NCBI GenBank assembly: GCA_022826245.1 | Contig: JAJDVG010000046.1 | Span: 5,523 to 69,522, forward strand | Reading direction: 5' to 3' | Source of the DNA: Gammaproteobacteria bacterium | GTDB taxonomy: Bacteria > Pseudomonadota > Gammaproteobacteria > Steroidobacterales > Rariloculaceae | DNA length: 64,000 bases | In this document: positions 3,992 to 63,894 of the stretch, piece by piece | How the letters are laid out: each line of letters starts with the position of its first letter | Position numbering within the stretch: the stretch's first letter is position 1 | The notes under the pieces: model-generated | Databases searched by the model: none | What the model saw: the letters and a program-made list of their open reading frames with translations, nothing else | Told to the model about the DNA's origin: nothing | Made by a program: the position numbers and the translations under genes

Positions 3992-5043
3992 CGCGAACCG
4001 GCTGTTCCGGCGAGGCGCACGGCCATTTGGACGGCCTCATACAGGCTGTCATGCCGGGCGCGGCCGCTGCCGGCCAGCGACAACGCGGTACCGTGATCGA
4101 CGGAGGTACGGACGATCGGCAGACCGAGCGTGACGTTGACGATCGCTCCGAACGCGGACGCCTTGAGCGCCGGCAGGCCCTGGTCGTGGTACATCGCAAG
4201 CACGACGTCGCAACGGCTGAGCGACTCCGGGGTGAAGGCCGTGTCCGCGGGCACCGGGCCGATGATGTCGATGCCGCGTGCGCCAAGCGACGCCAGCGCC
4301 GGTTCAATAACGGTCAGTTCCTCCTCGCCGAGCGTGCCGTCCTCGCCCGCGTGCGGGTTCAGTCCGAGCACGAGGATGCGCGGTTTCCCGATTCCGAAGC
4401 GGTCGGTGAGCCCGTCGTGCACGATCGTGATGATTCGCTCGATCCGGCCGCGGTCGAGCGCGGCGGGGACGTCGCGCAACGGCAGATGGGTCGTTGCGAG
4501 CGCGACCCGCAGGGCACTGCTGCAGAGCATCATCACCGCCTGCCCGGAACCGGTCAGTTCGGCGAGAAACTCCGTGTGTCCCGTGAACGGCACGCCGCTT
4601 TCGCTGATCGCGCTCTTGTTCACGGGCGCGGTCACCAGCGCATCGCACTCGCCTCTCATGCAGAGCCCCGCGCCCAACTCGAGCATGTCGAGCACGTAAC
4701 GCGCGTTCCGGGCATCGAGTCGGCCTGCAACGGCAGAGCACTTTGCAGGCACCTCGAGCACCTGCATCGTCCCGCGGCGATGCGGCGCGATGTCCCTCGC
4801 GCCGTCCAGGACTTCGAACCGAAGCTCGAGACCGAGCTTGCGTCCCCGCGAAGCCAGAATCTCGGCATCGCCGAGCACGGCAAGGCGCGCCGGAATATCC
4901 TCGTCGCAAAGCGCGCAGCAGATGTCAGGACCGATTCCGGCCGGTTCGCCGGAACTGACGACGATTGCGGGAGGTGTCACTGGCGGTTCCCCGCTCACGA
5001 CGCGTGGTTGACCGGCGAGCATTGTGGTGCGGCCGCGTACCAC
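3988..5043 (-). CDS. pdxA: 4-hydroxythreonine-4-phosphate dehydrogenase
   Basis: SSGEPAGIGPDI...TTHLPLRDV...GLNPHAGEDG...VRTSVDHGTA blocks. The start could instead be the MLAGQ codon at 5022. Confidence 0.9.
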   Translation of the reverse strand: MVRGRTTMLAGQPRVVSGEPPVTPPAIVVSSGEPAGIGPDICCALCDEDIPARLAVLGDAEILASRGRKLGLELRFEVLDGARDIAPHRRGTMQVLEVPAKCSAVAGRLDARNARYVLDMLELGAGLCMRGECDALVTAPVNKSAISESGVPFTGHTEFLAELTGSGQAVMMLCSSALRVALATTHLPLRDVPAALDRGRIERIITIVHDGLTDRFGIGKPRILVLGLNPHAGEDGTLGEEELTVIEPALASLGARGIDIIGPVPADTAFTPESLSRCDVVLAMYHDQGLPALKASAFGAIVNVTLGLPIVRTSVDHGTALSLAGSGRARHDSLYEAVQMAVRLAGTAGSR

Positions 5044-5071
5044 CTGCCCCCCCGGTTTGCCACAATGCCAA

Positions 5072-5180
5072 GGGGAGTTGCACTACCGGTCGCTTGAGAC
5101 CCTCGCGCGCTGGTTTGCGCGCGCGGAGCGTACAGGGTTGTATTTACCGCGTGTCTCAAGCGACCGGTAGTGCGACTCCC
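5072..5180. repeat. 109-bp palindromic MITE/REP-like element (full copy)
   Basis: Left arm GGGGAGTTGCACTACCGGTCGCTTGAGAC (5072-5100) matches the reverse complement of 5152-5180 at 28 of 29 positions. The 51-nt core contains a second CGCGCGC/GCGCGCG palindrome. Positions 5116-5184 recur at 40758-40826. Confidence 0.8.
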
Positions 5181-5202
5181 CGCACCACGTAGCGAACGTG
5201 GC

Positions 5203-6540
5203 CTACAGGCGCGTATCGATGTACGCCTGATCCCGCAGGCGGCGCAGCCACATCGCCTTTTCCTCCTCGGCCTTGGCTGCCCGAATCTCCCCGGCGCATT
5301 GCTGTTCCTTGACGTCGTTGGTCTGATCGTAGGAACGGTGCTCGAGCACCTCGAGGATGTGCCAGCCGAACCGGGTCTGGAAAGGCTCGCTGAGTTCGCC
5401 GATCGGCAGCGAGGTCAGCATTTCGGTGAACTCCGGGACGTACGCCTCGGGCTCCGACCAGCCGAGATCGCCGCCGTCGGCGGCCGATACGGCATCTTCG
5501 GACACGGCCTGCGCGATCGTCGCGAAGTCGTCGCCGCCGAGGATCTGGTCACGGATGCCGCGCAGGCGCTGCATGGCGGCGTCATCGTCGAGCACCTCGT
5601 TGGGCGTGATCAGAATGTGCCGGCCGCGTACCTGATCGACCATGACGCGCTGGTCCCCGCGCATGTCGTTGAGGCGCACGAGATTGAGACCGCTGCCGCT
5701 CTGGATCGGCTCGGACACCTCTCCGGCTTGCATGCGCGTCACCGAATCGGCGAACAGCGTCGGCAGTTCCGAGCCGCGCCGCCAGCCGAGCTCGCCCCCC
5801 TCGAGCGCCGTCGGCGAGTCGGAAAACGTCACGGCGAGTTGACCGAAATCCTCGCCGTCTTCAACCCGCTCGAGAATCTCGTTGACCTCCCGTTGCGCGG
5901 CGGCGAGTTCTTCGCTGCTCGCCGCCGACGACACGCTGACGAGGATGTGCGAAATGTTGTACAGGAACTCGCTGGTCCGCGACTGGTCGGTGCGCTGCAG
6001 GCACTGCTCGAGTTCGCGCGGGGTGATGGCGATGCGGGCGAGCACGTCACGCTGTTCGAGCTGGCGCAGGGTGAGGTCCTTGCGGCTGTCTTCCCGGTAC
6101 ATCGCGTAGTCGATGCTCTCTTCGGCGAGCGCCGCCGGCAGTTGCTCGAGCGTCAGCCCGAGTTGTTCGGCGACGGCCGAAAGCGCCTGGTTGAGCACGT
6201 CGTCGCCAATCTCGATGCCGATACGCGCGGCGCGTTGCACCTGTATTTCCTCGAGAATGAGCTGTTCGAGCACCTGACTTTCGAGCACGGACAGCGGCGG
6301 CAGCGGGCGGCGCTGTTCGGCAGGGAGCTGTTCCTGCTGCAGCCTGAGGTTGTCGACGACCGTGGCCATGCGCATGGCGAGCTCGCTCTTGAGCACGACG
6401 CCCTCATCGACGAGGGCCGCGACACCATCGAGCAGTTCACCGCTCGATCCGAGTTCCCTGGTCTGGGCCTGAACGTCGGCGCAGACCAGGATTGCCGCCG
6501 CGCCGAATGCGGCGGCGAACGATCGTTTGCACAGGTTCAT
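5203..6540 (-). CDS. surA: periplasmic chaperone / peptidyl-prolyl isomerase SurA
   Basis: 445 aa with a signal peptide and two parvulin-like regions (...HILV..., ...GWHILEV...). 4-nt overlap with lptD. Confidence 0.9.
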   Translation of the reverse strand: MNLCKRSFAAAFGAAAILVCADVQAQTRELGSSGELLDGVAALVDEGVVLKSELAMRMATVVDNLRLQQEQLPAEQRRPLPPLSVLESQVLEQLILEEIQVQRAARIGIEIGDDVLNQALSAVAEQLGLTLEQLPAALAEESIDYAMYREDSRKDLTLRQLEQRDVLARIAITPRELEQCLQRTDQSRTSEFLYNISHILVSVSSAASSEELAAAQREVNEILERVEDGEDFGQLAVTFSDSPTALEGGELGWRRGSELPTLFADSVTRMQAGEVSEPIQSGSGLNLVRLNDMRGDQRVMVDQVRGRHILITPNEVLDDDAAMQRLRGIRDQILGGDDFATIAQAVSEDAVSAADGGDLGWSEPEAYVPEFTEMLTSLPIGELSEPFQTRFGWHILEVLEHRSYDQTNDVKEQQCAGEIRAAKAEEEKAMWLRRLRDQAYIDTRL

Positions 6541-8747
6541 TGAAAGGTCGATCCCGCGATGCTGCGATAGCCTAGAATACCACGGTCGAGCAGCTCCTCA
6601 GGAGCGCCCGAGCTTTCCGTAAGGCCCTTCAATTCGAGCTGAATCGTGATCGCGCTGTCGGTCTCGCCCGTGCGGCTGCTCACGTAGCGGCGGCCGACCA
6701 GGCGGATGCGCCAGCAGCAGGCTTCGTATTCCCAGCCGACGAACTGCTCGAGCGGTTCCTCCTCGAGCAGCGAATAGCTGTAATGGCCGATCACGCGCCA
6801 GCGCTCGCCGATGGGCCAGACCATCGACAGGTCGCCCTGTTCGAGCAGGCTGCGGCGGTATCGGTAGCCGATGCCGAACAGCCGGTCGGCCTGCGGCCGG
6901 AACTCGAATCTGGTTTCCGCCCGCGCGGTGTCCTCGGTTTCGCTGTTCCATTGGTAGCCGAAGTCGAGATTCCAGGTATCGCTGAGCCGCAGCGCCATTT
7001 CGGCGACGTAATCGGACGCGTCGGCATCGTTCGCCCGGCCGTCCGGCAGGCTCACGTTCTGCGCTTCGAGGTAGCGGGTCTGGCCGAGAGTCGCACGGAG
7101 GCGCTCCTGACCCGTCGCGCCGTCGATGAGCCGGGTCGAGACGCCGAAGCTCACCTGTTCCGTATCGGCGATGCGATCGGGGCCGGAGAACCGGTACTTC
7201 CTGAATAGCTGAACGAGGTTGAAGTCCGGGACGATCGTGTCGAACACGGGCAGGTTCGCCTGATCCTCGAACGGTACGTGGACGTAGAGCAATCGCGGTT
7301 CGAGCGTCTGAATGAAGCCTCCGTCGGCGCCGGCGGAGCGCTCGAAGGTGAGTCCCGAGTCGATGCTCGCGATCGGCAGGCCGCGCTTGATGTCCCCGGG
7401 CTCGCCCGGCGCCGTGTCGTCGAGCCAGTAGTTGGTCTGCCGGTACGCGACCGCGGGTGTCAGGTACATGCCGGCGCGCGCCAGCATCAGGCTCATTTCC
7501 TGCGTCGAGTCGAACCGCCAGCCCGTCGTGCCGATGTCGCGGTCGAAGTTCACGAGTTCGGTCGTCGATTCGAAGCCGACGACACGCCCGGCCCAACGCC
7601 CGTCGAAGACGATCTGCGGCACGCGTTCGTACGGCCGGTTCGTGGACTCGATCAGCGCGTCGATGGTCTGGTAGTTCTGGAACCGGGACCGCAGGGACCA
7701 GTTGTCGGCATAGAAACCGAGGTCGAAGAAACGGTTCAGATGCGTCTGGCTCGTGATGCTCAGGCTGTCGCCGAGATCTTCGAAATAGGTGTCATCGGAT
7801 ACTTCGGCAATGCCGGCGAGGAGCTGCCAGTTGCGTCCGAACAGCGTCTCGTGCGCGAAGTTGACGTAGCGTCGCGTACGGTCGAGTTGCGAGTCGTCGG
7901 GGAGGAATTCGAACCCCAACTGACCCGTGCTGCGCGGCATGAGGTAGCGGAAGTCGCCGTTCAACTGCATGCCGCGCTCGCTCATGTAGCGCGGTTGGAG
8001 CGTCAGGTCGTAGTTCGGGGCGAGGTTGAGATAGTAGGGAATGCCGATATCGAGCCCCGTGCGGTCCCGTTCGGCGAGTTGTGGCGTCAGGAAGCCGCTC
8101 TTGCGGCGATCGTCGATCGGAAAAGTGAAGTAGGGCGCATACAGGAGCGGCACTCCCCGGAACTCGAACTTGACGCCGCGCGCCGTGCCGAAGCCGCGAT
8201 CGACATCGAGCAGGATCTCGCGGGCAAGCAGTTCCCAGGCGACTCCGTCGGCCGGGCAGGTCGTGAAGTTGACGGCAGCAAGTTCCACCGTGTTGTCGGC
8301 GCTGAGCAGGAGATCGTCGGCGGAACCTCGCGCCGGCCGCGTCAGCAGCTCGAATCCGGCCCGGTCGAAGAATATCTGCTCGGCGTCGGCGCGCAATTCC
8401 GCGCCTTCGGCGAACACGTTGACATCGGAATCGCGGTATGTCGTGCGGCCGATGACCTGCACGGTTTCGTTGTCCCGGTCGTAGCTCGCCCGTTCCGCGG
8501 ACAGACTTCCGTCCCCGTAACGTATCTCCACCTGTTCGGAAAAATCCGCCGTGTCGCCGCCCGCGATGTCGATTCTCCCCGCGGAGATGATCAACGGCTG
8601 CCGTCCGGTCGAGTCCGACGCCGGTGGCAACGGGGGCAGGGGCGGTTGGGCGACCGGTGTCAGACACAGTTCCTGCGCAGCGCCCAGCCGGAAGGCGCAC
8701 AGGCACGCAAGGACGACGAGGGAGCGTGATCGATTGCTCGGGACCAA
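6537..8747 (-). CDS. lptD: LPS-assembly outer-membrane protein LptD
   Basis: 736 aa with a signal peptide and a beta-barrel-like Y/F/R-rich C-terminal region. Conserved lptD-surA-pdxA synteny. Confidence 0.9.
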   Translation of the reverse strand: MVPSNRSRSLVVLACLCAFRLGAAQELCLTPVAQPPLPPLPPASDSTGRQPLIISAGRIDIAGGDTADFSEQVEIRYGDGSLSAERASYDRDNETVQVIGRTTYRDSDVNVFAEGAELRADAEQIFFDRAGFELLTRPARGSADDLLLSADNTVELAAVNFTTCPADGVAWELLAREILLDVDRGFGTARGVKFEFRGVPLLYAPYFTFPIDDRRKSGFLTPQLAERDRTGLDIGIPYYLNLAPNYDLTLQPRYMSERGMQLNGDFRYLMPRSTGQLGFEFLPDDSQLDRTRRYVNFAHETLFGRNWQLLAGIAEVSDDTYFEDLGDSLSITSQTHLNRFFDLGFYADNWSLRSRFQNYQTIDALIESTNRPYERVPQIVFDGRWAGRVVGFESTTELVNFDRDIGTTGWRFDSTQEMSLMLARAGMYLTPAVAYRQTNYWLDDTAPGEPGDIKRGLPIASIDSGLTFERSAGADGGFIQTLEPRLLYVHVPFEDQANLPVFDTIVPDFNLVQLFRKYRFSGPDRIADTEQVSFGVSTRLIDGATGQERLRATLGQTRYLEAQNVSLPDGRANDADASDYVAEMALRLSDTWNLDFGYQWNSETEDTARAETRFEFRPQADRLFGIGYRYRRSLLEQGDLSMVWPIGERWRVIGHYSYSLLEEEPLEQFVGWEYEACCWRIRLVGRRYVSSRTGETDSAITIQLELKGLTESSGAPEELLDRGILGYRSIAGSTFQ

Positions 8748-8838
8748 GGATTGGCGCCGCGTAAAGGAAGTTACAATGGCACAGATCGCACCTGGCGTTC
8801 AATTGATCCCGCAAACCACCGCCGCTTTCCGTAGCCCG

Positions 8839-9531
8839 ATGTCCTCCCGACCCGCCAAGGCCATGATTCTGGCTGCCGGACGGGGCGAGCGAATGCGCGC
8901 CCTGACGAGCGACCGTCCCAAGCCGTTGCTCGAGATCGGTAACGAGTCGCTGATCGAAAGGCACCTGCGGCGGCTTGCCGAATGCGGCACGACGGATGTC
9001 GTGATCAACCTGTCGTATCGAGGCGCGCAGATTCGCAGGCGCCTGGGCGACGGAGCGCGCTGGAACCTGAACATCGAGTACAGCGAGGAGGGTGAACCGC
9101 CGCTCGAGACCGGCGGCGGGATCGTCCGCGCATTGCCGATGCTCGGCGGCCAACCCTTTCTGCTGATCAATGCCGACGTGTTGACCGACTTCGACTTCTC
9201 GAGCTTGCGCCTGGACAGGGAGCACGGCGTGCTCGTGCTCGTGCCGAGGCCGGCCTGGCGAGAGCAGGGCGATTTCGGCCTGGACGGCGGATCGATGGTC
9301 GTTGCGGCGCCGCCAAGCTACGTATTCGCGGGCGTCTCGATGCTCGATCCCGTGCTGTTCGAGGGCTGCGGTCCCGGCCGTCGGCCGCTCAAGCCGATCC
9401 TCGACGCGGCGATCGCAAGGCGCTCGCTGCGGGGCGAACTCCACGAAGGCTTGTGGACGGACGTCGGGACGCCGGAGCGCCTGCGCGCGGCGCGGCGCCT
9501 CGCCCAGGCTAGTGCGTCATCGCGTAGATGA
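8839..9531 (+). CDS. murU: nucleotidyltransferase, MurU-like (N-acetylmuramate-1-phosphate uridylyltransferase family)
   Basis: AMILAAGRGERMRALTSDRPKPLLEIG...LETGGGI...LINADV motifs, divergent from lptD as in other Gammaproteobacteria. Start chosen at MSSRPAKAMILAAG; ATG 8776 is an alternative. The track start at 8551 overlaps lptD. Confidence 0.7.
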   Translation: MSSRPAKAMILAAGRGERMRALTSDRPKPLLEIGNESLIERHLRRLAECGTTDVVINLSYRGAQIRRRLGDGARWNLNIEYSEEGEPPLETGGGIVRALPMLGGQPFLLINADVLTDFDFSSLRLDREHGVLVLVPRPAWREQGDFGLDGGSMVVAAPPSYVFAGVSMLDPVLFEGCGPGRRPLKPILDAAIARRSLRGELHEGLWTDVGTPERLRAARRLAQASASSRR

Positions 9532-10273
9532 GGTAGTTGACCGCGAACCGGTAGGCCAGCGCCGTCATCGGTTCGGGATAGTAGGGATCGTCGGCGTGCT
9601 CCCAGGCGTCGCCGAGATCCATATTGTGATTGATCGCGACCATGAGCCGGCCGCTGTCGTCGTAGACGCCGCGCCAGTGCGGCGTGATCCCGTCGCGTTC
9701 GTAGGTCACGCCGTACGAGAGCGCGGCGATGCCCGGAATCTGGATGCGCTGGTCGAGATCGTAGAGCACGTGCAGCACTTCGTCGTTGTCGGGAATGTCG
9801 ACGATCGGACGGTCCGGAAAGACGCGCGTCATCGACTCCATGAAGCCCGCCCATTCGTAACTGCCGTGAAAGTCGTCGACCATGAGGAAGCCGCCGCGCA
9901 GGAGATACTCGCGGAGCCGGGCGGCTTCGAGCTCGTCGAGGTACCAGCGGCCGACCTCGACGGCGTACAGCCACGGATAGTCGAAGATCGCGTCGTCGTC
10001 GAGACCGATGATTCGGGCTTCGTTGCGAGGGCTCGCTTCGACCCGGGTCAGGCGCGTAATGCCCTGAAGGAAGTGCGTTTCGGCTTCAGGCCAGTCCACG
10101 TCCCAACTGCTGCCGTAACCGAAACTGCCGCCGCGGCTCGAGTAGAGCAGCCTCGTGAAATGAAACTCGGCCGTCGGCTGTTCCGTGCGGCGGCCGTACT
10201 CATCGCTTAACGCGGCAAGCGTCAGCGCGATCAGCGCAGTCGCAGCCAGCACCTGGATCAAGCGTGCAGTCAT
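9509..10273 (-). CDS. DUF4159-like protein (membrane-anchored or secreted)
   Basis: Trimmed to MTARLIQVLAATALIALTLAA, a hydrophobic N-terminus. The blocks YPWLY...GGFLMVDDFHG...VAINHNMDLGDAWE recall DUF4159, a family that co-occurs with MoxR/DUF58/BatA clusters. Confidence 0.7.
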   Translation of the reverse strand: MTARLIQVLAATALIALTLAALSDEYGRRTEQPTAEFHFTRLLYSSRGGSFGYGSSWDVDWPEAETHFLQGITRLTRVEASPRNEARIIGLDDDAIFDYPWLYAVEVGRWYLDELEAARLREYLLRGGFLMVDDFHGSYEWAGFMESMTRVFPDRPIVDIPDNDEVLHVLYDLDQRIQIPGIAALSYGVTYERDGITPHWRGVYDDSGRLMVAINHNMDLGDAWEHADDPYYPEPMTALAYRFAVNYLIYAMTH

Positions 10274-54856: not shown

Positions 54857-57391
54857 ATGAGTTGGGGAGGGGCAGTGATCACGAAGAAACCAAGAAATAT
54901 CCTCGCGAGACGTATCCCGTTTGCGGGATTTTTGGGTTTGATGGGGCTCGCACCGTTACCCGGTCTTGCGCAAACCGCGGGTGGGGCGCTGGAGGAAATC
55001 ATCGTGACGGCGCAGCGCCGCGCGGAAGACCTTCAGACAACGCCGATATCAGTTGCTGCCTTCGGTACTGAACGCTTGCGGGATCTAAATGCAGCCAGTC
55101 TCGGTGACATGGCTAGTTTTGTTCCTAACCTGAGCTTGGGAAATGCGACAGGCCGAGCGACGGATAAAGCGGCGATTTCAATACGTGGCATCAATGAGGC
55201 GCTTGGTTCGATTGGTACCTCTCCTGCAGTCGGTATCTATATCGATGATGTTTATTACGGCCAGCCACAGATCCAGTTTTTAAGGCTTATCGATGTGGAG
55301 CGAGTAGAGGTACTTCGTGGTCCGCAAGGTACGCTTTTTGGAAGAAACAGTCTTGGCGGGGCTATTAGATACATTACGAGAAAACCGGAATTTGATGCGG
55401 TCGACGGCTACGTTACTTCAACAATGGGCGACTTTGATCGCCTGGATGTGAGTGGCGCTGTCAACGTTCCTTTGAGTGATAATGTGGCTGTTCGCGTTAA
55501 AGCGGCAACTCTGAGCCGCGACGGTTACGTTGATCGCCTGGCCGATAATGCAAGCCTGGGTGCTGAAGATACACAGTTCGTGAGTGCGCAGTTGCGTTGG
55601 GCGCCTTCGGACCGATTGGATGTGAACCTTTCAGTTGACAGTACCGTGCGCGATACCGATACCGGTGCGATAAAGCTGATTGACTATTTCGGCTTTAATG
55701 GCGGCTTCGCACCCACCGGCGGAGACGCCAGCCCGCCCGCTTTCACTCCGGGAGCTGCGAGTTCTTTTGTATGGAACGCAGTGTGGGGCGGCACCCCAAG
55801 GGCTTATTCAGCAGAGATTCCAAACAGTCTGTATCAAACGGCCGGTACCGGTACGATGCCTAGACTGCGTTCAGAATCCACTGGCGTCACTTTGAACATT
55901 TCTTATGACATCAATGACTCACTAAACCTTAGATCCATAACCGGTTACAGATCGGTTGATGAATTCCGCATAAATGATTTTGATGATTCAGCGACCGCTG
56001 TTCATATCTTTGATGATGTGTCAGAAGAAGGCGTCGATTTCTGGTCTCAGGAGTTTCAGCTGACTGGTTCAACCGAAAGACTGAACTGGACCGCTGGCTT
56101 CTACTTTTCTCAGGAAGACCCATTTCTGCGGGGCATCGATAGCAGTGATCCACGTGGTGTTTTTGCCTTCGGACTCATAAATGCGAACGACATCGGCAAT
56201 ATGGAAATCACGCACACCGGTATCTTTGCGCAGGGCACTTATGATCTAACCGACCGCCTGGCATTAACGATAGGGATGCGCTGGGCGGAAGACGATAAGA
56301 CTTATCGTGTCCGTCAGGTTTCTACGTGGAATGCGGCATTGGCCGCGGAAGCGACCGCCTTAGGCGTAACCGCTTTTCCGGCACCGCCTTTCTTTACTCC
56401 AGGCCTTCCTTTGGCACCTCCGCCCGGTTTCGGTTGTGATGTTGTCACGCTTGGCACCTGTACCAACATTCCCGAACTGTCAGCGCAAAACGATGAGGAT
56501 TCTCTCACTAGTCGAATATCGCTCGAATATCAATGGAATGATGACGTAATGACCTATATCTCTGCGAGTGAAGGTTTCAAGACTGGTGGTCCAAACGATA
56601 CGGCCGAGGATATCAACATAGCCTTCCCTGCCGAAGAAGTAACTTCCTACGAGATAGGGATTCGTAGTGAATTGCTGGATTCACGCCTGCGCATAAATGC
56701 AACTTATTTCACGCAGGACAATACGGACAAACAAATTACTATTGCGCCAACAGCTGCTGCTGCCGGGGGTGGTTTTGTAAGCCCTTGTTTTGGTCGTTGC
56801 ATTTTTAGTGCCGGCGATGTGGAAATGTCAGGTATAGAACTTGACATGCTATTTGCGCCTACAGAGCGTCTGCAGCTACGCGCGAACCTGGGCACCATAG
56901 ATGCCGAATGGACAAGAGTCGTCCCCGGTGGGCCAGCCCGGCTGACGTCCGATTTGGCGCTTGCTCCGGAATTAAGCTGGAACATTGGTGGTTCTTACTA
57001 CGTGCCATTGGCAAGTGGTGGCAACCTGTCGTTCCTGCTGGATTACGCCTACAAAGATGATCAGGAGTCCAGTCAGCAGGATTCAACGACCCTGACGATT
57101 CCTGAATACGATTTACTAACTCTACGATTGAGGTACGAGGATCCTGACGGACGGTGGGATGCCAGTATCTTCTGCACTAATTGCGCAGATGAGGAATATA
57201 TCGTCGGTGGTAATGCATGGGCCGGTTCGACTGATAACACACCGTTTAGCTACAAGCCCGCAAGCCACCCAGCGTTTTTTGGCGGCGCAACTGCGAATGC
57301 CTTCCCCAACTTCCTCGTGGTTCCGGAGGTCACCTATGTCATCGTAGGCGCGCCACGAATGTGGGGTCTTGACTTCCGGTATAGCTTTTAA
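54857..57391 (+). CDS. TonB-dependent receptor
   Basis: Signal peptide. Plug region with the TonB-box-like EEIIVTAQRR and RVEVLRGPQGTLFGRNSLGGAIRYITRKP. C-terminal ...GLDFRYSF terminal Phe. Confidence 0.9.
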   Translation: MSWGGAVITKKPRNILARRIPFAGFLGLMGLAPLPGLAQTAGGALEEIIVTAQRRAEDLQTTPISVAAFGTERLRDLNAASLGDMASFVPNLSLGNATGRATDKAAISIRGINEALGSIGTSPAVGIYIDDVYYGQPQIQFLRLIDVERVEVLRGPQGTLFGRNSLGGAIRYITRKPEFDAVDGYVTSTMGDFDRLDVSGAVNVPLSDNVAVRVKAATLSRDGYVDRLADNASLGAEDTQFVSAQLRWAPSDRLDVNLSVDSTVRDTDTGAIKLIDYFGFNGGFAPTGGDASPPAFTPGAASSFVWNAVWGGTPRAYSAEIPNSLYQTAGTGTMPRLRSESTGVTLNISYDINDSLNLRSITGYRSVDEFRINDFDDSATAVHIFDDVSEEGVDFWSQEFQLTGSTERLNWTAGFYFSQEDPFLRGIDSSDPRGVFAFGLINANDIGNMEITHTGIFAQGTYDLTDRLALTIGMRWAEDDKTYRVRQVSTWNAALAAEATALGVTAFPAPPFFTPGLPLAPPPGFGCDVVTLGTCTNIPELSAQNDEDSLTSRISLEYQWNDDVMTYISASEGFKTGGPNDTAEDINIAFPAEEVTSYEIGIRSELLDSRLRINATYFTQDNTDKQITIAPTAAAAGGGFVSPCFGRCIFSAGDVEMSGIELDMLFAPTERLQLRANLGTIDAEWTRVVPGGPARLTSDLALAPELSWNIGGSYYVPLASGGNLSFLLDYAYKDDQESSQQDSTTLTIPEYDLLTLRLRYEDPDGRWDASIFCTNCADEEYIVGGNAWAGSTDNTPFSYKPASHPAFFGGATANAFPNFLVVPEVTYVIVGAPRMWGLDFRYSF

Positions 57392-57483
57392 CAGGCTGTT
57401 GAAAAAGTCCCGTTCAAGGTCGTTGGGCTGAGTCGAGACCGGTTAAAATTCATATTCCGTTTTGGGACCGAGGAACGAACCCG

Positions 57484-58596
57484 ATGCGCGGCGCCGATAT
57501 TCGTCAGGAAGGGCTGTTCAGCTACGTGTCCGCGGAGAGCCGGGTCCCGAAGCGGCATCCGCTGCGACCGATCAGGGAGATGGTTGACACGGCGCTGGCG
57601 GAGCTGACGCAGGAGTTCGAGGCGAGCTACGCGCATACGGGCCGGCCGTCGATTCTGCCGGAGAAGCGGGTCAGGGCCTTGCTGTTGCAGGTGTTCTACT
57701 CGATCCGCAGCGAACGGCTGTTGTGCGAGCAGTTGGATTACAACCTGCTGTTTCGGTGGTTCGTGGGGCTGTCGATGGACGATGCGGTCTGGAACCACTC
57801 GACGTTCTCGAAGAACCGGGATCGCCTGATGCAGGCGAACATCGCCCAGGCGTTCTTCGAGGAGGTGCTGGCCCAAGCGCGTGCCCAGGGGTTGACCAGC
57901 GACGAGCATTTCAGCGTGGACGGGACGCTGATCGAGGCTTGGGCGTCGCTGAAGAGCTTTCGTCCGCGCGACGATTCCGACGATCCGCCTCAAGGCGGCG
58001 GGCGTAATCCCGACCGCGATTTTCATGGCGAGCGGCGCAAGAACGAGACCCACGCCTCCACGACCGATCCGGAAGCGAGGCTGTTTCGCAAGGGCAAGGG
58101 CAAGGAAGCCCGGCTGTGCTACATGGGCCATGTGCTGACCGAGAACCGTCACGGTCTGGCGGTCGACGCCCGGCTGAGCCCGGCCACCGGTACGGCCGAA
58201 CGCGAGGCGGCGCTTGACATGCTCGAGGCGATACCGGGCCGGCACCGGATCACCCTCGGCGCCGACAAGAACTACGACACTCGGGCGTTCGTCGCCGCCA
58301 CGCGGGCGCTGAACGCGACCCCGCACGTGGCGCGGAACGCGACCCCGCACGTGGCGCGGAACACCACCCACCGGCGCTCGGCCATTGACGGGCGAACGAC
58401 GCGGCATCGCGGCTACGCCCTCAGCCAGCGGGTGCGCAAACGCATCGAGGAAACGATCGGCTGGGCCAAGGAGGTCGGCCCGGTGCGCAAGACCAGGTTC
58501 AGAGGGGTCGATCGAGTCCAGTTCCAATGGCTGCTGACGCTCAGCGGATACAACCTGGTCCGGATGCGCAATCTCGTCGCGGAAGCACCCACGTAG
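57484..58596 (+). CDS. IS5-family DDE transposase
   Basis: EGLFSYVSAESRVPKRHPLRPIREM...LDYNLLFRWFVGL is a DUF772-type N-terminus. GADKNYDTRAFV...RKRIEETIGWAK are DDE-region blocks. Confidence 0.85.
   Translation: MRGADIRQEGLFSYVSAESRVPKRHPLRPIREMVDTALAELTQEFEASYAHTGRPSILPEKRVRALLLQVFYSIRSERLLCEQLDYNLLFRWFVGLSMDDAVWNHSTFSKNRDRLMQANIAQAFFEEVLAQARAQGLTSDEHFSVDGTLIEAWASLKSFRPRDDSDDPPQGGGRNPDRDFHGERRKNETHASTTDPEARLFRKGKGKEARLCYMGHVLTENRHGLAVDARLSPATGTAEREAALDMLEAIPGRHRITLGADKNYDTRAFVAATRALNATPHVARNATPHVARNTTHRRSAIDGRTTRHRGYALSQRVRKRIEETIGWAKEVGPVRKTRFRGVDRVQFQWLLTLSGYNLVRMRNLVAEAPT
58311..58358 (+). repeat. perfect 24-bp in-frame tandem duplication inside the transposase gene
   Basis: GAACGCGACCCCGCACGTGGCGCG occurs twice back to back, encoding NATPHVAR-NATPHVAR. 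Confidence 0.95.
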
Positions 58597-58793
58597 CCAC
58601 CGCGATGTGCCCGAAGTGCGTATCGAAACGCAACAGGAGGACGAAAAAGGATGCACCGAGAACACGGCAACCGACGCAACATTCGCCCGATGACCGCCTT
58701 CCAGTTTCGAATCGATCTGAACTCTGTCGTGCATGAAATTTCAAGACGTTTTTCAACGGCCTGTTAGAGGTCGCTTCACAAAAAGGAATAGTA

Positions 58794-59240
58794 ATGAAGG
58801 AAATGTCAGCGTTCTTCTTGTTGCTCATCCGCAGTTCTGGTGCTGCAGTAATTGGCTTTACAGTCCTGTGCACTCCTGTTCTCGCTCATCATTCATATGC
58901 GATGTTTGATCTCGAGAACACGGTCGTACATGAAGGTGTCGTGAAGCGTTTTCTTTGGACGAATCCGCACAGTCTGCTGGTCATGACGGTAACCGACTCG
59001 GACGGTGTCGAGCATGACTACAACTACGAAGCAAACGGCCCGGGTTATCTTGCACGCAACGGCTGGAAGCGGCAGACCGTCCGGCCGGGCGACCGCGTGA
59101 CCATTGTTTCCAATCCGTTGATGGATGGCAGTCCGGGCGGGAACCTGGTTGCGCTGACGCTGCCCGACGGGACAACGCTGTCGGCGCAACCAGGCGTCAC
59201 ACCGGACGAGGTGAGTGAGTTGACTGGAGCTGATCAATGA
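58794..59240 (+). CDS. small secreted protein, DUF6152-like, predicted mature N-terminus His-His (module copy 1, gene A)
   Basis: SD AGGAA upstream. Signal peptide ...CTPVLA|HHSYAMFD. WTNPH and PGDRVT..GGN blocks are shared with 60047..60424. Confidence 0.65.
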   Translation: MKEMSAFFLLLIRSSGAAVIGFTVLCTPVLAHHSYAMFDLENTVVHEGVVKRFLWTNPHSLLVMTVTDSDGVEHDYNYEANGPGYLARNGWKRQTVRPGDRVTIVSNPLMDGSPGGNLVALTLPDGTTLSAQPGVTPDEVSELTGADQ

Positions 59241-60025
59241 GCGCCGGCTATCGGATTCGCGCGGCACTGCTGATATTCGCGGCACTGGGTATCAGTTCGT
59301 TTACGGCAGCCCAGACCGCGCTCGACGGCCTGTATCAGAGCGCGCTCGATCCGGAAAATCTTGCCAGGAGCAGGCCTGCGGCGCCGTTTGATCTGACCGG
59401 CACCTGGAACATGATCATTGATCCCGAGACCGGCATGCATCAGTTTCTGCCGATGCCGAAGCTGACGCCGGCCGCCCAGGCCGTATTCGACAGGCATCAG
59501 GAGTTTGCAAGTCAGGGTTTCGAGTATCGGGACGATCCGGCTGCATGCTGGCCGCTGGGTATGCCCAGGATGATGACACGGTTTTGGCCGATTCAGATCA
59601 TTCAGCTGCCGACGATGGTGCAGCTCACGACGATGTTCAATAACAGCATCCGCTGGATATTCACCGACGGTCGTCCGCATCCGCCGGAGGATCTGATCGT
59701 GTACAACTACAACGGTCATTCGATCGGGCGTTGGGAAGATGACGAGTTGGTCATTGAGACGATCGGCATGACCGGCGAACGTCGCTGGATTCAGGAAGGT
59801 ATTCAGACCGGGGAGAACCTGCGCATCATTGAACGAATTCGGATGGACGAAGACGGTCAGGCATTCGATATCGAGTTCTCAATGACCGACCCGGACAACT
59901 GGGAAGGGACCTGGACGAATACGAAGCGCTTTGTCCGCCAGCCCCGCTCAGACATCGAAGAACATGTCTGTATTTACGAGCAGATGCGTGAGCTGCCAAG
60001 CTTCAGATTCAACATTCGCGAGTAA
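59237..60025 (+). CDS. secreted protein of unknown function (module copy 1, gene B)
   Basis: ATGA overlap with gene A and a signal peptide. Blocks shared with 60421..61239: DPAAACWPLGMPRMM, GHSIGRWEDDELVIET, DPDNWEGTWT and EEHVC. Confidence 0.6.
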   Translation: MSAGYRIRAALLIFAALGISSFTAAQTALDGLYQSALDPENLARSRPAAPFDLTGTWNMIIDPETGMHQFLPMPKLTPAAQAVFDRHQEFASQGFEYRDDPAACWPLGMPRMMTRFWPIQIIQLPTMVQLTTMFNNSIRWIFTDGRPHPPEDLIVYNYNGHSIGRWEDDELVIETIGMTGERRWIQEGIQTGENLRIIERIRMDEDGQAFDIEFSMTDPDNWEGTWTNTKRFVRQPRSDIEEHVCIYEQMRELPSFRFNIRE

Positions 60026-60046
60026 ATACAGCGCAGGAGAAGTGTC

Positions 60047-60424
60047 ATGACGATTGCAGGAAAAATTCGAATGCTCGTGATGCTTGCCGTGCTGGCATTG
60101 CCGGCGGCAGCACATCACTCTTTTGCGATCTTCGACTCCACGAGGGAAGTCACGATCAGCGGGACCGTTGCTGAGTTTCAGTGGACGAATCCGCACTGCT
60201 GGCTGCATGTGGATGTGGTCGGTGACGACGGGGTTGCCGAGCAGTGGGCGGTCGAGATGCTGAGCAAGAACGTGCTTGGCCGGATGGGGTGGAACCGCAT
60301 TTCAGTTAAGCCCGGCGATGAGGTGACGGTCGTGCTGCACCCTGTTCGCACCGGGGCCAGTGGCGGCAATATGGTGCGCATATTTGACGCAGCCGGGGAG
60401 CCGATCGGAGGGCCGCTGCAATGA
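60047..60424 (+). CDS. small secreted protein, DUF6152-like, predicted mature N-terminus His-His (module copy 2, gene A)
   Basis: SD AGGAGA upstream. Signal peptide ...LALPAAA|HHSFAIFD. WTNPH and PGDEVT..GGN blocks. Confidence 0.65.
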   Translation: MTIAGKIRMLVMLAVLALPAAAHHSFAIFDSTREVTISGTVAEFQWTNPHCWLHVDVVGDDGVAEQWAVEMLSKNVLGRMGWNRISVKPGDEVTVVLHPVRTGASGGNMVRIFDAAGEPIGGPLQ

Positions 60425-61239
60425 AACAGCCGATATCAATCATTATCGGCCTGATCTCGATGGTGCTTGCAGGCGGTGCCACAGCGCAATTTGGTACACC
60501 GGTTATTGAAGAGCTTGAAGTTTCTCCACCTGTGCCGGCGCGATTGCCGGACGGCCGCCCGAACTGGACCGGCTTCTGGATTGTGCCGAACGGATTGCTT
60601 GATACCTATCGCGGCCCGAGTGGTGTGGACGGTCAGGCTCCTGGTACCAATACGCGCAGCGCCCGCCGCCAGGACATCCCGCCATTGAAGGAACCTTATG
60701 AAACGATGTATGTGGAGGCATTGAGAAAATCAGCGGCCGGAGAACTCTCCGATCCGGTAGCTGCATGTTTTCCGCCCGGGATGCCGCGAGTGATGGTGAT
60801 GATTTACGGCATGGAGATTCTGCAGACGCCGAATGTCATTTCGATTACCAGTGAGTGGGGGCCGGCAACGCGCCGGATATGGATGGACCTCGACGAGCAC
60901 CCGCCTCTCGAAGAGCTCGATCCAACTTACCAGGGGCACTCTATTGGACGGTGGGAAGACGACACACTGGTGATCTCGACCGTCGGCATCCGCGAGGATG
61001 TACCACTCGACTTCGGACAACTGCCGCATAGCCCCAGACTTCATGTTATCGAGCGGTTCACGGAAGTCAGGCCCGGCGTACTCGTTAATGAGCTGACAGT
61101 GGAGGACCCGGAGGTGTTTGAAGAGCCGTGGACTTCCCGCTATGTTTATGTATATAGGCCCGATTTCCGGCTGCAGGAATTCGTCTGTCAGGAAAATAAT
61201 CGCAATATCGATGCGGACGGTCACTCGGTATTTGAATAG
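60421..61239 (+). CDS. secreted protein of unknown function (module copy 2, gene B)
   Basis: ATGA overlap with gene A and a signal peptide. DPVAACFPPGMPRVM, GHSIGRWEDDTLVIST, DPEVFEEPWT and QEFVC blocks. Confidence 0.6.
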   Translation: MKQPISIIIGLISMVLAGGATAQFGTPVIEELEVSPPVPARLPDGRPNWTGFWIVPNGLLDTYRGPSGVDGQAPGTNTRSARRQDIPPLKEPYETMYVEALRKSAAGELSDPVAACFPPGMPRVMVMIYGMEILQTPNVISITSEWGPATRRIWMDLDEHPPLEELDPTYQGHSIGRWEDDTLVISTVGIREDVPLDFGQLPHSPRLHVIERFTEVRPGVLVNELTVEDPEVFEEPWTSRYVYVYRPDFRLQEFVCQENNRNIDADGHSVFE

Positions 61240-61263: not shown

Positions 61264-61845
61264 GTGATTAGCCGCAGAAATGTATTGAAGTCAGGTGCGG
61301 CAGGCATAGCGACGATGGTCGCGTCTGGCTCAGTCCCGGCAACGACTGCTGTGAATGGAATCATGCCGTCTGCGGGGATTCGCCGCGCAGTATTCGATCC
61401 GCGCCATCGTGAAAGTCGTGACTTTGCGCAGGCATTTGAGCAACTCGGTGTAATGACCAGCCCGGTGCGAAACGACGTGGCGGGACTCTGGTACGGTGAT
61501 CTTCGCGATCAATTGCGCGCAGCAAGATCGCCTTTTGTCGGGCTCACAGATCGCTCGGCGCTTTTCTGTCTGGAAGAACTGGCGCGAGACCTGAACATGA
61601 GAGTGCGCTACCGGATTGATCGCGTGGTTGACTCCGGCGGGCGGGTTCTTCATCAAGTGTCGGGTCTGCCCGTCGATGTGGCGGAGATTCACGATCCTGG
61701 TGTCGACGAGCGTTTCGGCCATGCGATGGCCCGTCTGGCTCATCGCTTCGAAATCGAATCATTGGGTAACGTTCGTGCCCAAAAATACACGGGACCGTTC
61801 AGCAATGCGCACGAGCGAGCGCTCGTTGCGTGGCTTATCGCCTAG
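61264..61845 (+). CDS. Tat-signal protein of unknown function, upstream of the flavocytochrome genes
   Basis: GTG start after the GAGGAAGG SD. Twin-arginine motif ISRRNVLKSGAAGIATMVASG. No cofactor motif was recognised. Confidence 0.6.
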   Translation: MISRRNVLKSGAAGIATMVASGSVPATTAVNGIMPSAGIRRAVFDPRHRESRDFAQAFEQLGVMTSPVRNDVAGLWYGDLRDQLRAARSPFVGLTDRSALFCLEELARDLNMRVRYRIDRVVDSGGRVLHQVSGLPVDVAEIHDPGVDERFGHAMARLAHRFEIESLGNVRAQKYTGPFSNAHERALVAWLIA

Positions 61846-61918
61846 CTGTGCGTCGCAGATCGACGCGCTTCGCATAACGAGTCTCGGAAAAACAGTGTAA
61901 CTACAGGAGATTTTCGCG

Positions 61919-63532
61919 ATGGCACTACCTCCGAATGTAAGCGCAGAAGATTTTGCAGCTGCGCTTACTGACTTTGCTGCGGCGGTTGGCGACGACTGGG
62001 TTTTCAGTTCCGACGAAGACGTTGCGCAATACCGGGATTCCTACTCAATTCTCTGGGGAGAGCCCGAAGAACGAGTTGCTTCTGCGGCAGTTGCGCCGGC
62101 CAACGTAGAGCAGATCCAGCAGATAGTTCGCGTGGCTAACCGCTATGGTATTCCTCTCTATCCGATTTCCACGGGCAGGAACCTGACCTATGGGGGTGCG
62201 GCGCCAAACCTCTCCGGGAGTGTAGTGCTCGATCTGAAACGCATGAACCGGATTCTCGAGGTCGATGAGGATCGCCATTTTGCGCTTGTTGAACCAGGTG
62301 TTTCCTATTTCGATCTTTACAACTACATTCAGGAGCGCGGCCTCAAGCTCATGCTCGATGTGCCCGATCCTGGGTGGGGTAGCCCGATCGGCAACAGTCT
62401 CGATCATGGTGTTGGTTACACGATGGCGCCGTTCAGAGACCATTTTGGTTCGCACTGCGGGATGGAGTTCGTGACCGCGGAGGGCGAAGTCGTCCGTACC
62501 GGTAACGGCGCGATACCGGGTTCAGACGGCTGGCAGGATTATCGTTACGGCGTTGGTCCGATGATTGACGGTCTGCTTGCACAGTCAAACTTCGGCATCG
62601 TGACCAAGATGGGATTCTGGCTCATGCCAATGCCTGAAACCTTCCTGACCGGGACGGTGATGGTGCCGCGCTATGGCGATTTCGATGCGCTTGTCAAGGA
62701 GGTCAGCTACCTTGAGGACTCGTTCATGATTGGCCTGCCGGATTTCGGCAGCCCTTCAGCCGAAGGTGACCCTGGCGGGCCTATGGCGGCGCTGATGCAA
62801 AACGGCTGGCCATCTGTCGAGCAGCTCGAGGAGTTCGTCAGCGCGCAGGGTATGCCTGCCTGGTCTGTTGAGCTGCGGTTCTATGGTCCGGAGGAAGTCG
62901 TGCGCGCTGCCTGGGGAGCGGCACAGCGACGTTTCAGGGACCGCATTCCGGGGGCTACGTTTGAGGACGGTTATTTCTGGCGGCTGCCCTTGTCGGCAGA
63001 AGATGTAGCAGAAAATCCGCGTAAGCCGGAGCTTGGCATTCCGGCGCTCGAGATTTTCGATATGGTTGCGAGAAAACCTTACACCAATGATGCGCCATGG
63101 GAAGGGCACGCAGACTTTTTTGCATTCTTGCCGAGGAAGGCAGAAGCAGTCCACAAAGCTGCCCGAATGATGTATGAGACCTACACTGAAGTCGGGGCGC
63201 CGCCGGTGCATCATCCGTTTTTCACGCCGATCAACTACTACTCTCGCGCATATATCATGGCAACGCTGGTCCCGACCTGGCGGGATCCGGCCAGAAACGC
63301 GCAGAGTCGAGCGCTGTTTTCACTGCTTCTTGATCGATGCGCAGAAAACGGTTGGGGCGTGTATCGCACAAACCCGGCTTTCCAGGAGCAGGCGGTGAGC
63401 AAGTACTCATACAACAACAGCGCGCTGCAGCGGTACCAGGAAAGACTCAAGGACAGCATCGATCCCAACGGCATCATTTCGCCGGGCCGCTATGGAATCT
63501 GGCCGGCTGGCATGAGGAGCGGCCGAGCATGA
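61919..63532 (+). CDS. VAO/PCMH-family FAD-linked oxidase (p-cresol methylhydroxylase flavoprotein-like)
   Basis: AVAPANVEQIQQIVRVANRYGIPLYPISTGRNLTYGGAAP is a PCMH-type FAD-binding domain. 537 aa, with no signal peptide visible. Confidence 0.8.
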   Translation: MALPPNVSAEDFAAALTDFAAAVGDDWVFSSDEDVAQYRDSYSILWGEPEERVASAAVAPANVEQIQQIVRVANRYGIPLYPISTGRNLTYGGAAPNLSGSVVLDLKRMNRILEVDEDRHFALVEPGVSYFDLYNYIQERGLKLMLDVPDPGWGSPIGNSLDHGVGYTMAPFRDHFGSHCGMEFVTAEGEVVRTGNGAIPGSDGWQDYRYGVGPMIDGLLAQSNFGIVTKMGFWLMPMPETFLTGTVMVPRYGDFDALVKEVSYLEDSFMIGLPDFGSPSAEGDPGGPMAALMQNGWPSVEQLEEFVSAQGMPAWSVELRFYGPEEVVRAAWGAAQRRFRDRIPGATFEDGYFWRLPLSAEDVAENPRKPELGIPALEIFDMVARKPYTNDAPWEGHADFFAFLPRKAEAVHKAARMMYETYTEVGAPPVHHPFFTPINYYSRAYIMATLVPTWRDPARNAQSRALFSLLLDRCAENGWGVYRTNPAFQEQAVSKYSYNNSALQRYQERLKDSIDPNGIISPGRYGIWPAGMRSGRA

Positions 63533-63894
63533 GAAAAGCGATAATCACAGCTGGTCTGGCATTGTTGGCAACCACCGTCGGGCTCGCGCAGAACGCACCT
63601 TCACGCGACAACGGGAAAGTGGTGTACGACAAGTGGTGTTTGCCCTGTCATGGCGCCGTTGCACCGGCCGAAATGCCATTCGGTGGCTATGGACTGCCGG
63701 GCACGTCTGCGTTGCGAATAAAATACCGGGGTGAGATTCCGGCGGTCCTCGAAGATCGCACCGACCTCGTTCCTGCATTCATTAGAACAGTTGTGCGAGG
63801 CGGATTATTCGGAATGCCAATGACGAGAAGAACCGAAATCAGTGATGCCGAGCTCGACGACATCATCACTTATCTGACGAGAAACAATAACTAG
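63529..63894 (+). CDS. monohaem c-type cytochrome (flavocytochrome small subunit-like)
   Basis: Internal start MRKAIITAGLALLATTVGLA (Sec signal) in an ATGA overlap with the oxidase stop. One CLPCH haem motif. A distal GMPM is a possible Met ligand. Confidence 0.8.
   Translation: MRKAIITAGLALLATTVGLAQNAPSRDNGKVVYDKWCLPCHGAVAPAEMPFGGYGLPGTSALRIKYRGEIPAVLEDRTDLVPAFIRTVVRGGLFGMPMTRRTEISDAELDDIITYLTRNNN

Follow-up and report, generated by a model that had tools for sequence, protein, structure and literature searches.

The X-F-C gene module

This work concerns three adjacent genes on the same strand, at positions 61264-63894 of a 64,000-nucleotide stretch of DNA (the window; contig JAJDVG010000046.1) from a gammaproteobacterium of the family Rariloculaceae. 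They encode a small protein with a twin-arginine (RR) motif, termed X, a flavoprotein of the vanillyl-alcohol oxidase (VAO)/p-cresol methylhydroxylase (PCMH) family, termed F, and a cytochrome c, termed C (Table 1). An original prediction, made from the sequence alone, had proposed that F, for want of a signal peptide, may be exported as a folded hitch-hiker on X by the twin-arginine translocation (Tat) system. The gene sizes, the SRRNVLK motif of X, the CLPCH motif of C and the ATGA coupling of F and C on which it was built were all read again in the sequence. The locus itself is an ordinary, newly found PCMH-like flavocytochrome, and the question of wider relevance is how its flavoprotein may leave the cytoplasm.

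The GTG start codon of X follows the sequence AGGAAGG at a distance of 8 nt. Its N-terminus, MISRRNVLKSGAAGIATMVASG, has the motif arrangement of a Tat signal, since SRRNVLK is followed by the moderately hydrophobic stretch SGAAGIATMVASG. The Pfam TAT_signal model scored 20.6 bits on X (E = 4e-4), just below its cut-off of 22.7 bits, and no further match to Pfam or NCBIfam models was found. The N-terminal signal covers approximately residues 1-32 and precedes an alpha/beta domain of about 155 residues. In an AlphaFold2 model based on an alignment of 118 sequences (mean confidence, pLDDT, 75.7), residues 40-193 adopt a confidently predicted alpha/beta fold, preceded by disorder over residues 1-32; no sequence match of X to any solved chain in the PDB and no Foldseek match of the model to the PDB at E <= 0.001 were obtained. 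X contains a single Cys and one conserved His, and the earlier observation that it has no cofactor motif was confirmed. It is the only gene product of the module with a Tat motif.

The ATG of C overlaps the stop codon of F (ATGA, 63529-63532). Its signal, MRKAIITAGLALLATTVGLA, followed by QN, is of the general secretory (Sec) type, and because of this signal and its CXXCH motif C must be periplasmic. C matches the Cytochrome_CBB3 domain (E = 4e-10) and, weakly, PchC (1dii_C, E = 0.0075). Homologous F and C proteins form a single complex, as structure 1dii holds both chains.

Table 1. Positions of the X, F and C genes and of neighbouring features in the window
Feature	Positions	Strand	Description
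X	61264..61845	+	193-aa PchX-family protein; open reading frame (ORF) with GTG start and ribosome-binding site
Twin-arginine motif S-R-R-N-V-L-K	61270..61290	+	X residues 3-9; read from sequence
F	61919..63532	+	537-aa VAO/PCMH-family 4-phenol-oxidising flavoprotein without signal peptide; FAD_binding_4
C	63529..63894	+	121-aa monohaem cytochrome c; Sec-type signal, residues 1-20; CLPCH at 63637-63651
Four secreted-protein genes (DUF6152, 262-aa unannotated, DUF6152, 272-aa unannotated)	58794..61239	+	Domain search
TonB-dependent outer-membrane receptor, cluster head	54857..57391	+	Plug and TonB_dep_Rec domains on the identical gene of locus L002
IS5-family insertion sequence interrupting the cluster	57389..58766	+	18-nt inverted repeats, transposase domains, GC 0.67

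F is a signal-less flavoprotein of the VAO/eugenol-oxidase type

The absence of a signal peptide from F, as originally claimed, proved robust. An in-frame TAA (61898-61900) lies 7 codons ahead of the ATG, so that an N-terminal extension is impossible, and residue 2-3 of F aligns onto residue 2-5 of crystallised homologues. A common start, M-x-L-P-P-x-V-S, again without a signal, is shared by 66 F homologues, and the apparent N-terminal extensions of some homologues are artefacts of calling the longest ORF in GC-rich DNA. The first 45 residues of F carry no net positive charge, and acidic residues lie within the sole hydrophobic stretch. A cryptic start or signal further upstream was considered and is ruled out by the TAA codon and the conserved start.

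F matches Pfam FAD_binding_4 (PF01565; E = 8e-29), a domain that binds flavin adenine dinucleotide (FAD). Its closest solved relative is 9h40, annotated as 'p-cresol methylhydroxylase' (E = 3e-163), followed by bacterial 4-phenol oxidases, eugenol oxidase (E = 1e-97) and VAO (E = 6e-86), and PchF (1dii) is matched in two stretches (E = 7e-79). With PchF residues numbered from the 1dii alignment, Tyr91, Tyr482 and Arg483 of F occupy the phenolate-binding columns of PchF Tyr95, Tyr473 and Arg474; in the alignment of F homologues the Arg never varies, and each Tyr reaches a conservation of at least 90%. This triad supports a 4-substituted phenol as the substrate of F, and the initial guess of a 4-alkylphenol-type compound fits with it.

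The flavin site differs from that of PchF. His397 of F falls in the column of the His that binds FAD covalently in VAO and eugenol oxidase (GGH-x-x-FSP). PchF Tyr384, which carries the 8-alpha-O-tyrosyl FAD, is not kept: a 6-residue insertion is present and Thr occupies that column. F belongs to another clade than PchF and, by these alignments, resembles the VAO/eugenol-oxidase type more than classical PchF. Covalent flavinylation of VAO-type enzymes is autocatalytic, and the FAD of F is probably bound in the same manner to His397.

X is a divergent member of the PchX family

A word-indexed search with X returned 255 homologues, all annotated as 'hypothetical' and without Pfam domains. A profile built from 118 X homologues and run against 1.84 billion representative sequences matched 1525 clusters (50% identity) at E <= 1e-3, and 890 at E <= 1e-10. 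These searches place X in a large unnamed family for which there is neither a Pfam nor an NCBIfam model, although database annotation already flags some of its members as Tat-signal proteins. Over 30 X-F-C triples, the mean identity was 35% for X, 57% for F and 54% for C, and X thus evolves much faster than its neighbours.

Despite this divergence, the twin arginines are retained. None of the 118 close homologues deviates at R4 or R5, and both residues stay invariant after the addition of relatives of 24-30% identity (Roseomonas, Novosphingobium, pNL1). In 75 genome loci found with X, which belong to Gammaproteobacteria, Alphaproteobacteria and Bryobacterales/Acidobacteriota, every intact X has (S/T/N/D)-R-R ahead of a hydrophobic stretch, and only ORFs that are truncated or frameshifted depart from this pattern. 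One homologue (locus L005, 8001-8690; P0009, 229 aa) contains an exact internal tandem duplication of 37 residues that spans the most conserved segment of X (ALFCLEELARDVGMRV...) and is either real or an artefact of long-read assembly.

The original prediction had also pointed to an uncharacterised pchX in the pch operon of Pseudomonas as perhaps relevant, and as far as this link can be tested it holds. A preprint on Thauera gives the Pseudomonas gene order as pchA-pchC-pchX-pchF. Clusters of the Pseudomonas putida pchC-pchX-pchF type, like the window, encode a small cytochrome c and a VAO/PCMH flavoprotein together with a protein of unassigned function and about 185-195 residues. No Pseudomonas plasmid with an F homologue was found in PLSDB. 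On a Massilia plasmid, a cytochrome c gene is followed by one for a 182-aa hypothetical protein and then by an F that matches PchF (1dii) with E = 1e-176 and is the closest PchF relative found. Sulfuricurvum has the same C-X-F order, and its middle gene product is listed at NCBI as a 'twin-arginine translocation signal domain-containing protein'. The middle proteins of Massilia and Sulfuricurvum begin with an RR motif and end in FVSFV(I/L), to be compared with the LVAWLIA end of X, so that these classical pchX-position proteins resemble X in their signals and in a C-terminal (L/F)VS(W/F) motif. They differ in gene order (C-X-F as against X-F-C in the window) and in sequence, X being less than 25% identical to the classical group.

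The homology was nevertheless detectable by profile comparison. Used as a query, the Massilia pchX-position protein had 5 matches, and a profile of three classical sequences collected 50. The alignment of the X profile with 33 pchX-position proteins by hhalign reached 96.9% (E = 2e-10) and took in 178 columns, with the RR motif at one end and the C-terminal motif at the other, as compared to 62% (E = 7.5e-5) with the three classical sequences only. Judged by these profiles, X is a divergent member of the PchX family, the identity of PchX itself being taken from synteny in Massilia.

X is genetically linked to F

In about 59 of the approximately 70 loci that were found with X and have enough flanking sequence (~84%), the gene immediately downstream of X encodes an F homologue, and C usually comes next. 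The arrangement is no chance juxtaposition, because dozens of unrelated genomes have these three genes in this order. A second sample was collected with F and comprised 80 metagenome loci, in which 53 F genes had at least 900 bp on both sides. X was present within 1.6 kb of 28 of the 43 F genes with a neighbouring cytochrome c, versus none of the 10 without (Fisher p = 1.7e-4). Among the 15 F genes with a cytochrome c and without X, five are second F copies in clusters that do contain X, and two are cut by contig ends.

The annotated plasmids lead to the same picture, since an RR protein is encoded next to every proteobacterial F that adjoins a cytochrome gene. The order of the genes varies between X-F-C (Roseomonas, Novosphingobium pLA3 and Paraburkholderia), C-X-F (Massilia and Sulfuricurvum) and F-C-X (Sphingobium SJTF8). 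The RR-motif ORF that precedes C-F-C in Novosphingobium pNL2 is shorter, with 124 aa. Plasmid pNL1 and Caballeronia (order F-X) have X and F without an adjacent cytochrome, and three cytochrome-less plasmid F genes (Rhodococcus, Corynebacterium, Rhizobium) have no RR protein alongside.

Some genomes (loci L006, L022 and L049) contain two complete X-F-C modules within a few kb. Those of L006 (8001-10645 and 12875-15535) are in opposite orientation, and both of their X proteins are only about 29% identical to that of the window. In two Steroidobacteraceae loci, L080 (6459-6935) and L081 (6614-8977), X is followed by a gene of the nitrite/sulfite-reductase type; the short remnant of an F N-terminus that L080 retains (…AVGAEWVFTS…) suggests that F was lost there. 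A candidate second escort pair, at locus L008, was rejected, as the small ORF that precedes a glucose-methanol-choline (GMC) oxidoreductase gene has no RR motif.

An F protein with its own Tat signal

One locus, L074, amounts to a natural experiment. Its operon has the order X-F1-C-F2. The second flavoprotein gene, F2 (8509-10182), has GGGAG 8 nt ahead of its ATG, and its product begins MTDRRKFLQTAAGMAAVPAVGAAGLALPATAAGAQ, in which the Tat signal MTDRRKFLQTAAG is fused directly to the usual LPPGVS start of F proteins. This signal closely resembles that of the X of the same operon, MTTRRRFLQATAG, and looks as if it was derived from an X gene. An F-type protein can consequently be a direct Tat substrate. 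We regard L074 as the strongest single piece of sequence evidence that X supplies a Tat signal in trans.

Proposed role of X as a Tat escort and alternative explanations

On balance, we favour the view that X is a Tat-signal-bearing escort, or hitch-hiker carrier, that exports folded and flavinylated F, which then pairs with Sec-exported C. F would fold in the cytoplasm and take up FAD there, probably forming the covalent bond to His397 autocatalytically. As FAD is bound in the cytoplasm, F would have to cross the membrane in the folded state; folded export needs a Tat signal, which is absent from F and present on X, and X, having no cofactor of its own, would have no need of Tat on its own account. 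The alpha/beta domain of the X precursor would bind folded F, and the Tat translocase would recognise SRRNVLK of X and carry the X-F complex across the inner membrane. C would be exported unfolded by Sec and receive its haem in the periplasm, where F paired with C would constitute the active dehydrogenase and oxidise a 4-substituted phenol, probably one taken up through the TonB receptor of the cluster head. After export, X is probably released, since classical PCMH has been solved with two types of chain only, flavoprotein and cytochrome. One possibility is that X shields the face of F that binds the cytochrome and stays there until displaced, in which case export and assembly would be coupled; that C is what displaces X after export is speculation.

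Several observations weigh against an escort function. About 8 of the 43 F genes with a cytochrome c have neither X nor any other RR-motif ORF within 4 kb, and the F proteins of these loci are still signal-less. F genes without a cytochrome make up a mixed class, as several are close paralogues of second F copies in X-containing clusters, and F2 of L074 is the sole F with its own Tat signal among about 150 examined. Conversely, 11 distant X homologues have no adjacent F, six of them being located beside a cytochrome c only; at L055, one such cytochrome-c-only locus, an F is present 3.5 kb downstream. Three distant X homologues adjoin a haem-c/pyrroloquinoline quinone (PQQ) dehydrogenase with a Sec-type signal, which because of that signal would need no Tat escort. 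These F-less X proteins (for example L064, 6001-8461, and also L056, L066, L048, L052, L054 and L062) are 28-35% identical to X and have an intact RR motif. Given the F-less X homologues and the X-less F+C loci, X could have, or could also have, a periplasmic role tied to small cytochromes. The mirror-tree analysis of the 30 triples, in which the partial correlation of X with F given C was r = 0.62 and that of X with C given F r = 0.05, has to be discounted because it is confounded by length, F being the longest and least noisy of the three proteins.

The main alternative is that X is an independent periplasmic accessory, exported by Tat for reasons of its own as a cytochrome c assembly or docking factor or as a third subunit, while F uses another route. 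It would explain the X-C pairs without F (L048, L052, L054, L062 and L066), the X genes beside Sec-type PQQ quinohaemoproteins (L056, L064 and L066) and the F+C loci that lack X. X tracks F and not C in most loci, however, and pNL1 and Caballeronia have kept X and F in the absence of an adjacent cytochrome. The X-like Tat signal on F2 of L074 makes F a Tat passenger, the divergence of X does not follow that of C once F is accounted for (weak evidence, for the reason given above), and we know of no other export route for a folded flavoprotein without a signal. We consider such an accessory role unlikely. A variant of the escort scheme, in which X brings F across by Tat and then keeps its signal uncleaved, so as to stay on permanently as a third subunit and anchor the flavocytochrome to the inner membrane, appears less probable still. 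The consensus of the X family shows no conserved AxA cleavage site, and a Geobacter PCMH is reportedly membrane-associated; the hydrophobic region of X, on the other hand, is short and rich in Gly, Ala and Ser, with a best 12-residue hydropathy of 1.43 as compared to 2.15 for the Sec signal of C, as is typical of cleavable Tat signals, and classical PCMH structures contain no chain besides flavoprotein and cytochrome. Finally, F might remain cytoplasmic and act as an oxidase or use another electron acceptor, X and C being functionally unrelated to it. Many VAO-family relatives, such as eugenol oxidase and VAO, are indeed cytoplasmic oxidases, and some close paralogues of F stand alone, without C or X. 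We find this very improbable in view of the ATGA overlap between F and C, the F-C adjacency kept in dozens of genomes, the complex formed by the homologous PchF and PchC, and the secreted proteins and outer-membrane receptor encoded by the rest of the cluster.

The proposal of hitch-hiker export by X thus remains the best supported on comparative grounds, in that it is carried by the invariant RR motif, the linkage of X to F and the Tat-bearing F paralogue, and it is weakened by the F+C loci without X and by the X genes without F.

Comparison with known export and enzyme systems

In the classical Tat hitch-hiker pairs, namely, HybO-HybC of [NiFe] hydrogenase and DmsA-DmsB of dimethyl sulfoxide (DMSO) reductase, a signal-bearing partner carries a folded, cofactor-loaded and signal-less partner through Tat, as is proposed here. 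The carrier in these pairs is a redox subunit of the final enzyme, whereas X has no cofactor motif and would be a dedicated escort.

A documented precedent is found in the FAD-dependent glucose dehydrogenase of Burkholderia cepacia and related flavoprotein-cytochrome c dehydrogenase complexes, in which the gamma ('hitchhiker') subunit is needed for secretion of the signal-less FAD-containing alpha subunit, which once secreted joins a cytochrome c subunit in the periplasm (PMC6719666). Like X, the gamma subunit is small and cofactor-less, has a twin-arginine signal and is encoded beside a signal-less flavoprotein. Its passenger differs from F, as it is a GMC-family flavoprotein with a 3Fe-4S cluster. 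The gamma subunit is all-helical, with five helices and 121 residues in the mature protein, whereas X is predicted to be of the alpha/beta type and has no homology to it; in addition, gamma stays in the complex and X probably does not. The resemblance is by this comparison functional only, and since the two proteins are not homologous, X as an escort would be an independent invention.

A further related system is BpfAB, the bisphenol F hydroxylase of Sphingobium yanoikuyae, which consists of a PCMH-like flavoprotein and a cytochrome c (bioRxiv 10.1101/2025.09.08.674859). BpfA, PchF and PcmI have no signal and the cytochrome does; the authors assume a periplasmic location, credit export to the signal of the cytochrome and do not mention an RR-motif ORF (bioRxiv 10.1101/2025.09.08.674859). 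The identical bpf cluster is present on plasmid pF1 of S. yanoikuyae SJTF8 (L088), where an RR-motif ORF of 189 aa (4916-5485; MSAIEVTRRVALGAGALGVGAVAL...) directly follows bpfB, so that the order is F-C-X, unlike that of the window. The Sec signal of a cytochrome cannot carry a folded flavoprotein.

Genomic setting of the module

The X-F-C genes belong to a cluster (Table 1) in which the last of the four upstream secreted-protein genes is separated from the start of X by a gap of 24 nt. No convincing promoter or terminator was seen between the cluster genes in the window, and these four genes probably share an operon with X. The 262- and 272-aa secreted proteins, for which no Pfam match was found, are paralogues with 35% mutual identity, each encoded directly after a DUF6152 gene. 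The predicted mature N-termini of the DUF6152 proteins start with HHS(Y/F)A(M/I)FD, a possible metal site. The DUF6152/unannotated block precedes X-F-C also in loci L006, L011, L032 and L041; single DUF6152/unannotated pairs are found near X in about 16 of the 75 genome loci, often with a TonB-dependent receptor, and the receptor gene of the cluster head is kept in L006 as well. The setting is that of an envelope-located uptake and oxidation cluster.

The IS5-family element separates the TonB receptor gene from the first of the two DUF6152 genes. It is delimited by inverted repeats at 57389-57406 and 58749-58766, encodes its transposase at 57484-58596 and stands out by its GC content from the surroundings, which have 0.51-0.58. 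The related clusters L006 and L041 have the same upstream block without it, and the insertion is no part of the flavocytochrome system. Several metagenome scaffolds carry the same cluster, and a contig of the uncultured gammaproteobacterium p16x57bins.13, a metagenome-assembled genome (locus L010), is 99% identical to the window. The length of the called transposase varies slightly, between 362 and 370 aa, among metagenome copies of the locus.

Implications for PCMH-type flavocytochromes

PCMH-type flavocytochromes are textbook examples of periplasmic enzymes and serve to degrade phenol, cresol, lignin monomers and bisphenol. To our knowledge, the export route of PchF and the purpose of pchX have been open questions from the 1990s on, when the pch genes were sequenced. 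No statement linking PchX, PchF or PCMH with Tat or with hitch-hiking was found in the literature searched, which did not extend to papers in subscription journals, and an earlier mention of the escort idea for PchX outside the literature covered cannot be excluded. The type of mechanism is already known; its application to the PchX family is new. Whether the whole family, with at least 1500 clusters at 50% identity, consists of dedicated Tat escorts with a fold of their own that hand VAO/PCMH flavoproteins to Sec-exported cytochromes c is a broader claim, which we hold to be plausible and put forward only tentatively.

If X is indeed an escort, the export of PchF, BpfA and PcmI, which have no signal, and the purpose of pchX would be accounted for, and a widespread unannotated family would gain a function. 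An escort role would also explain why the periplasmic production of PCMH-type enzymes in heterologous hosts is difficult, in which case engineers should co-express the X gene. Next to the gamma subunit of the FAD-dependent glucose dehydrogenase, X would be a second and structurally unrelated dedicated Tat escort for flavoproteins, and the escort reading makes an old and concrete question directly testable.

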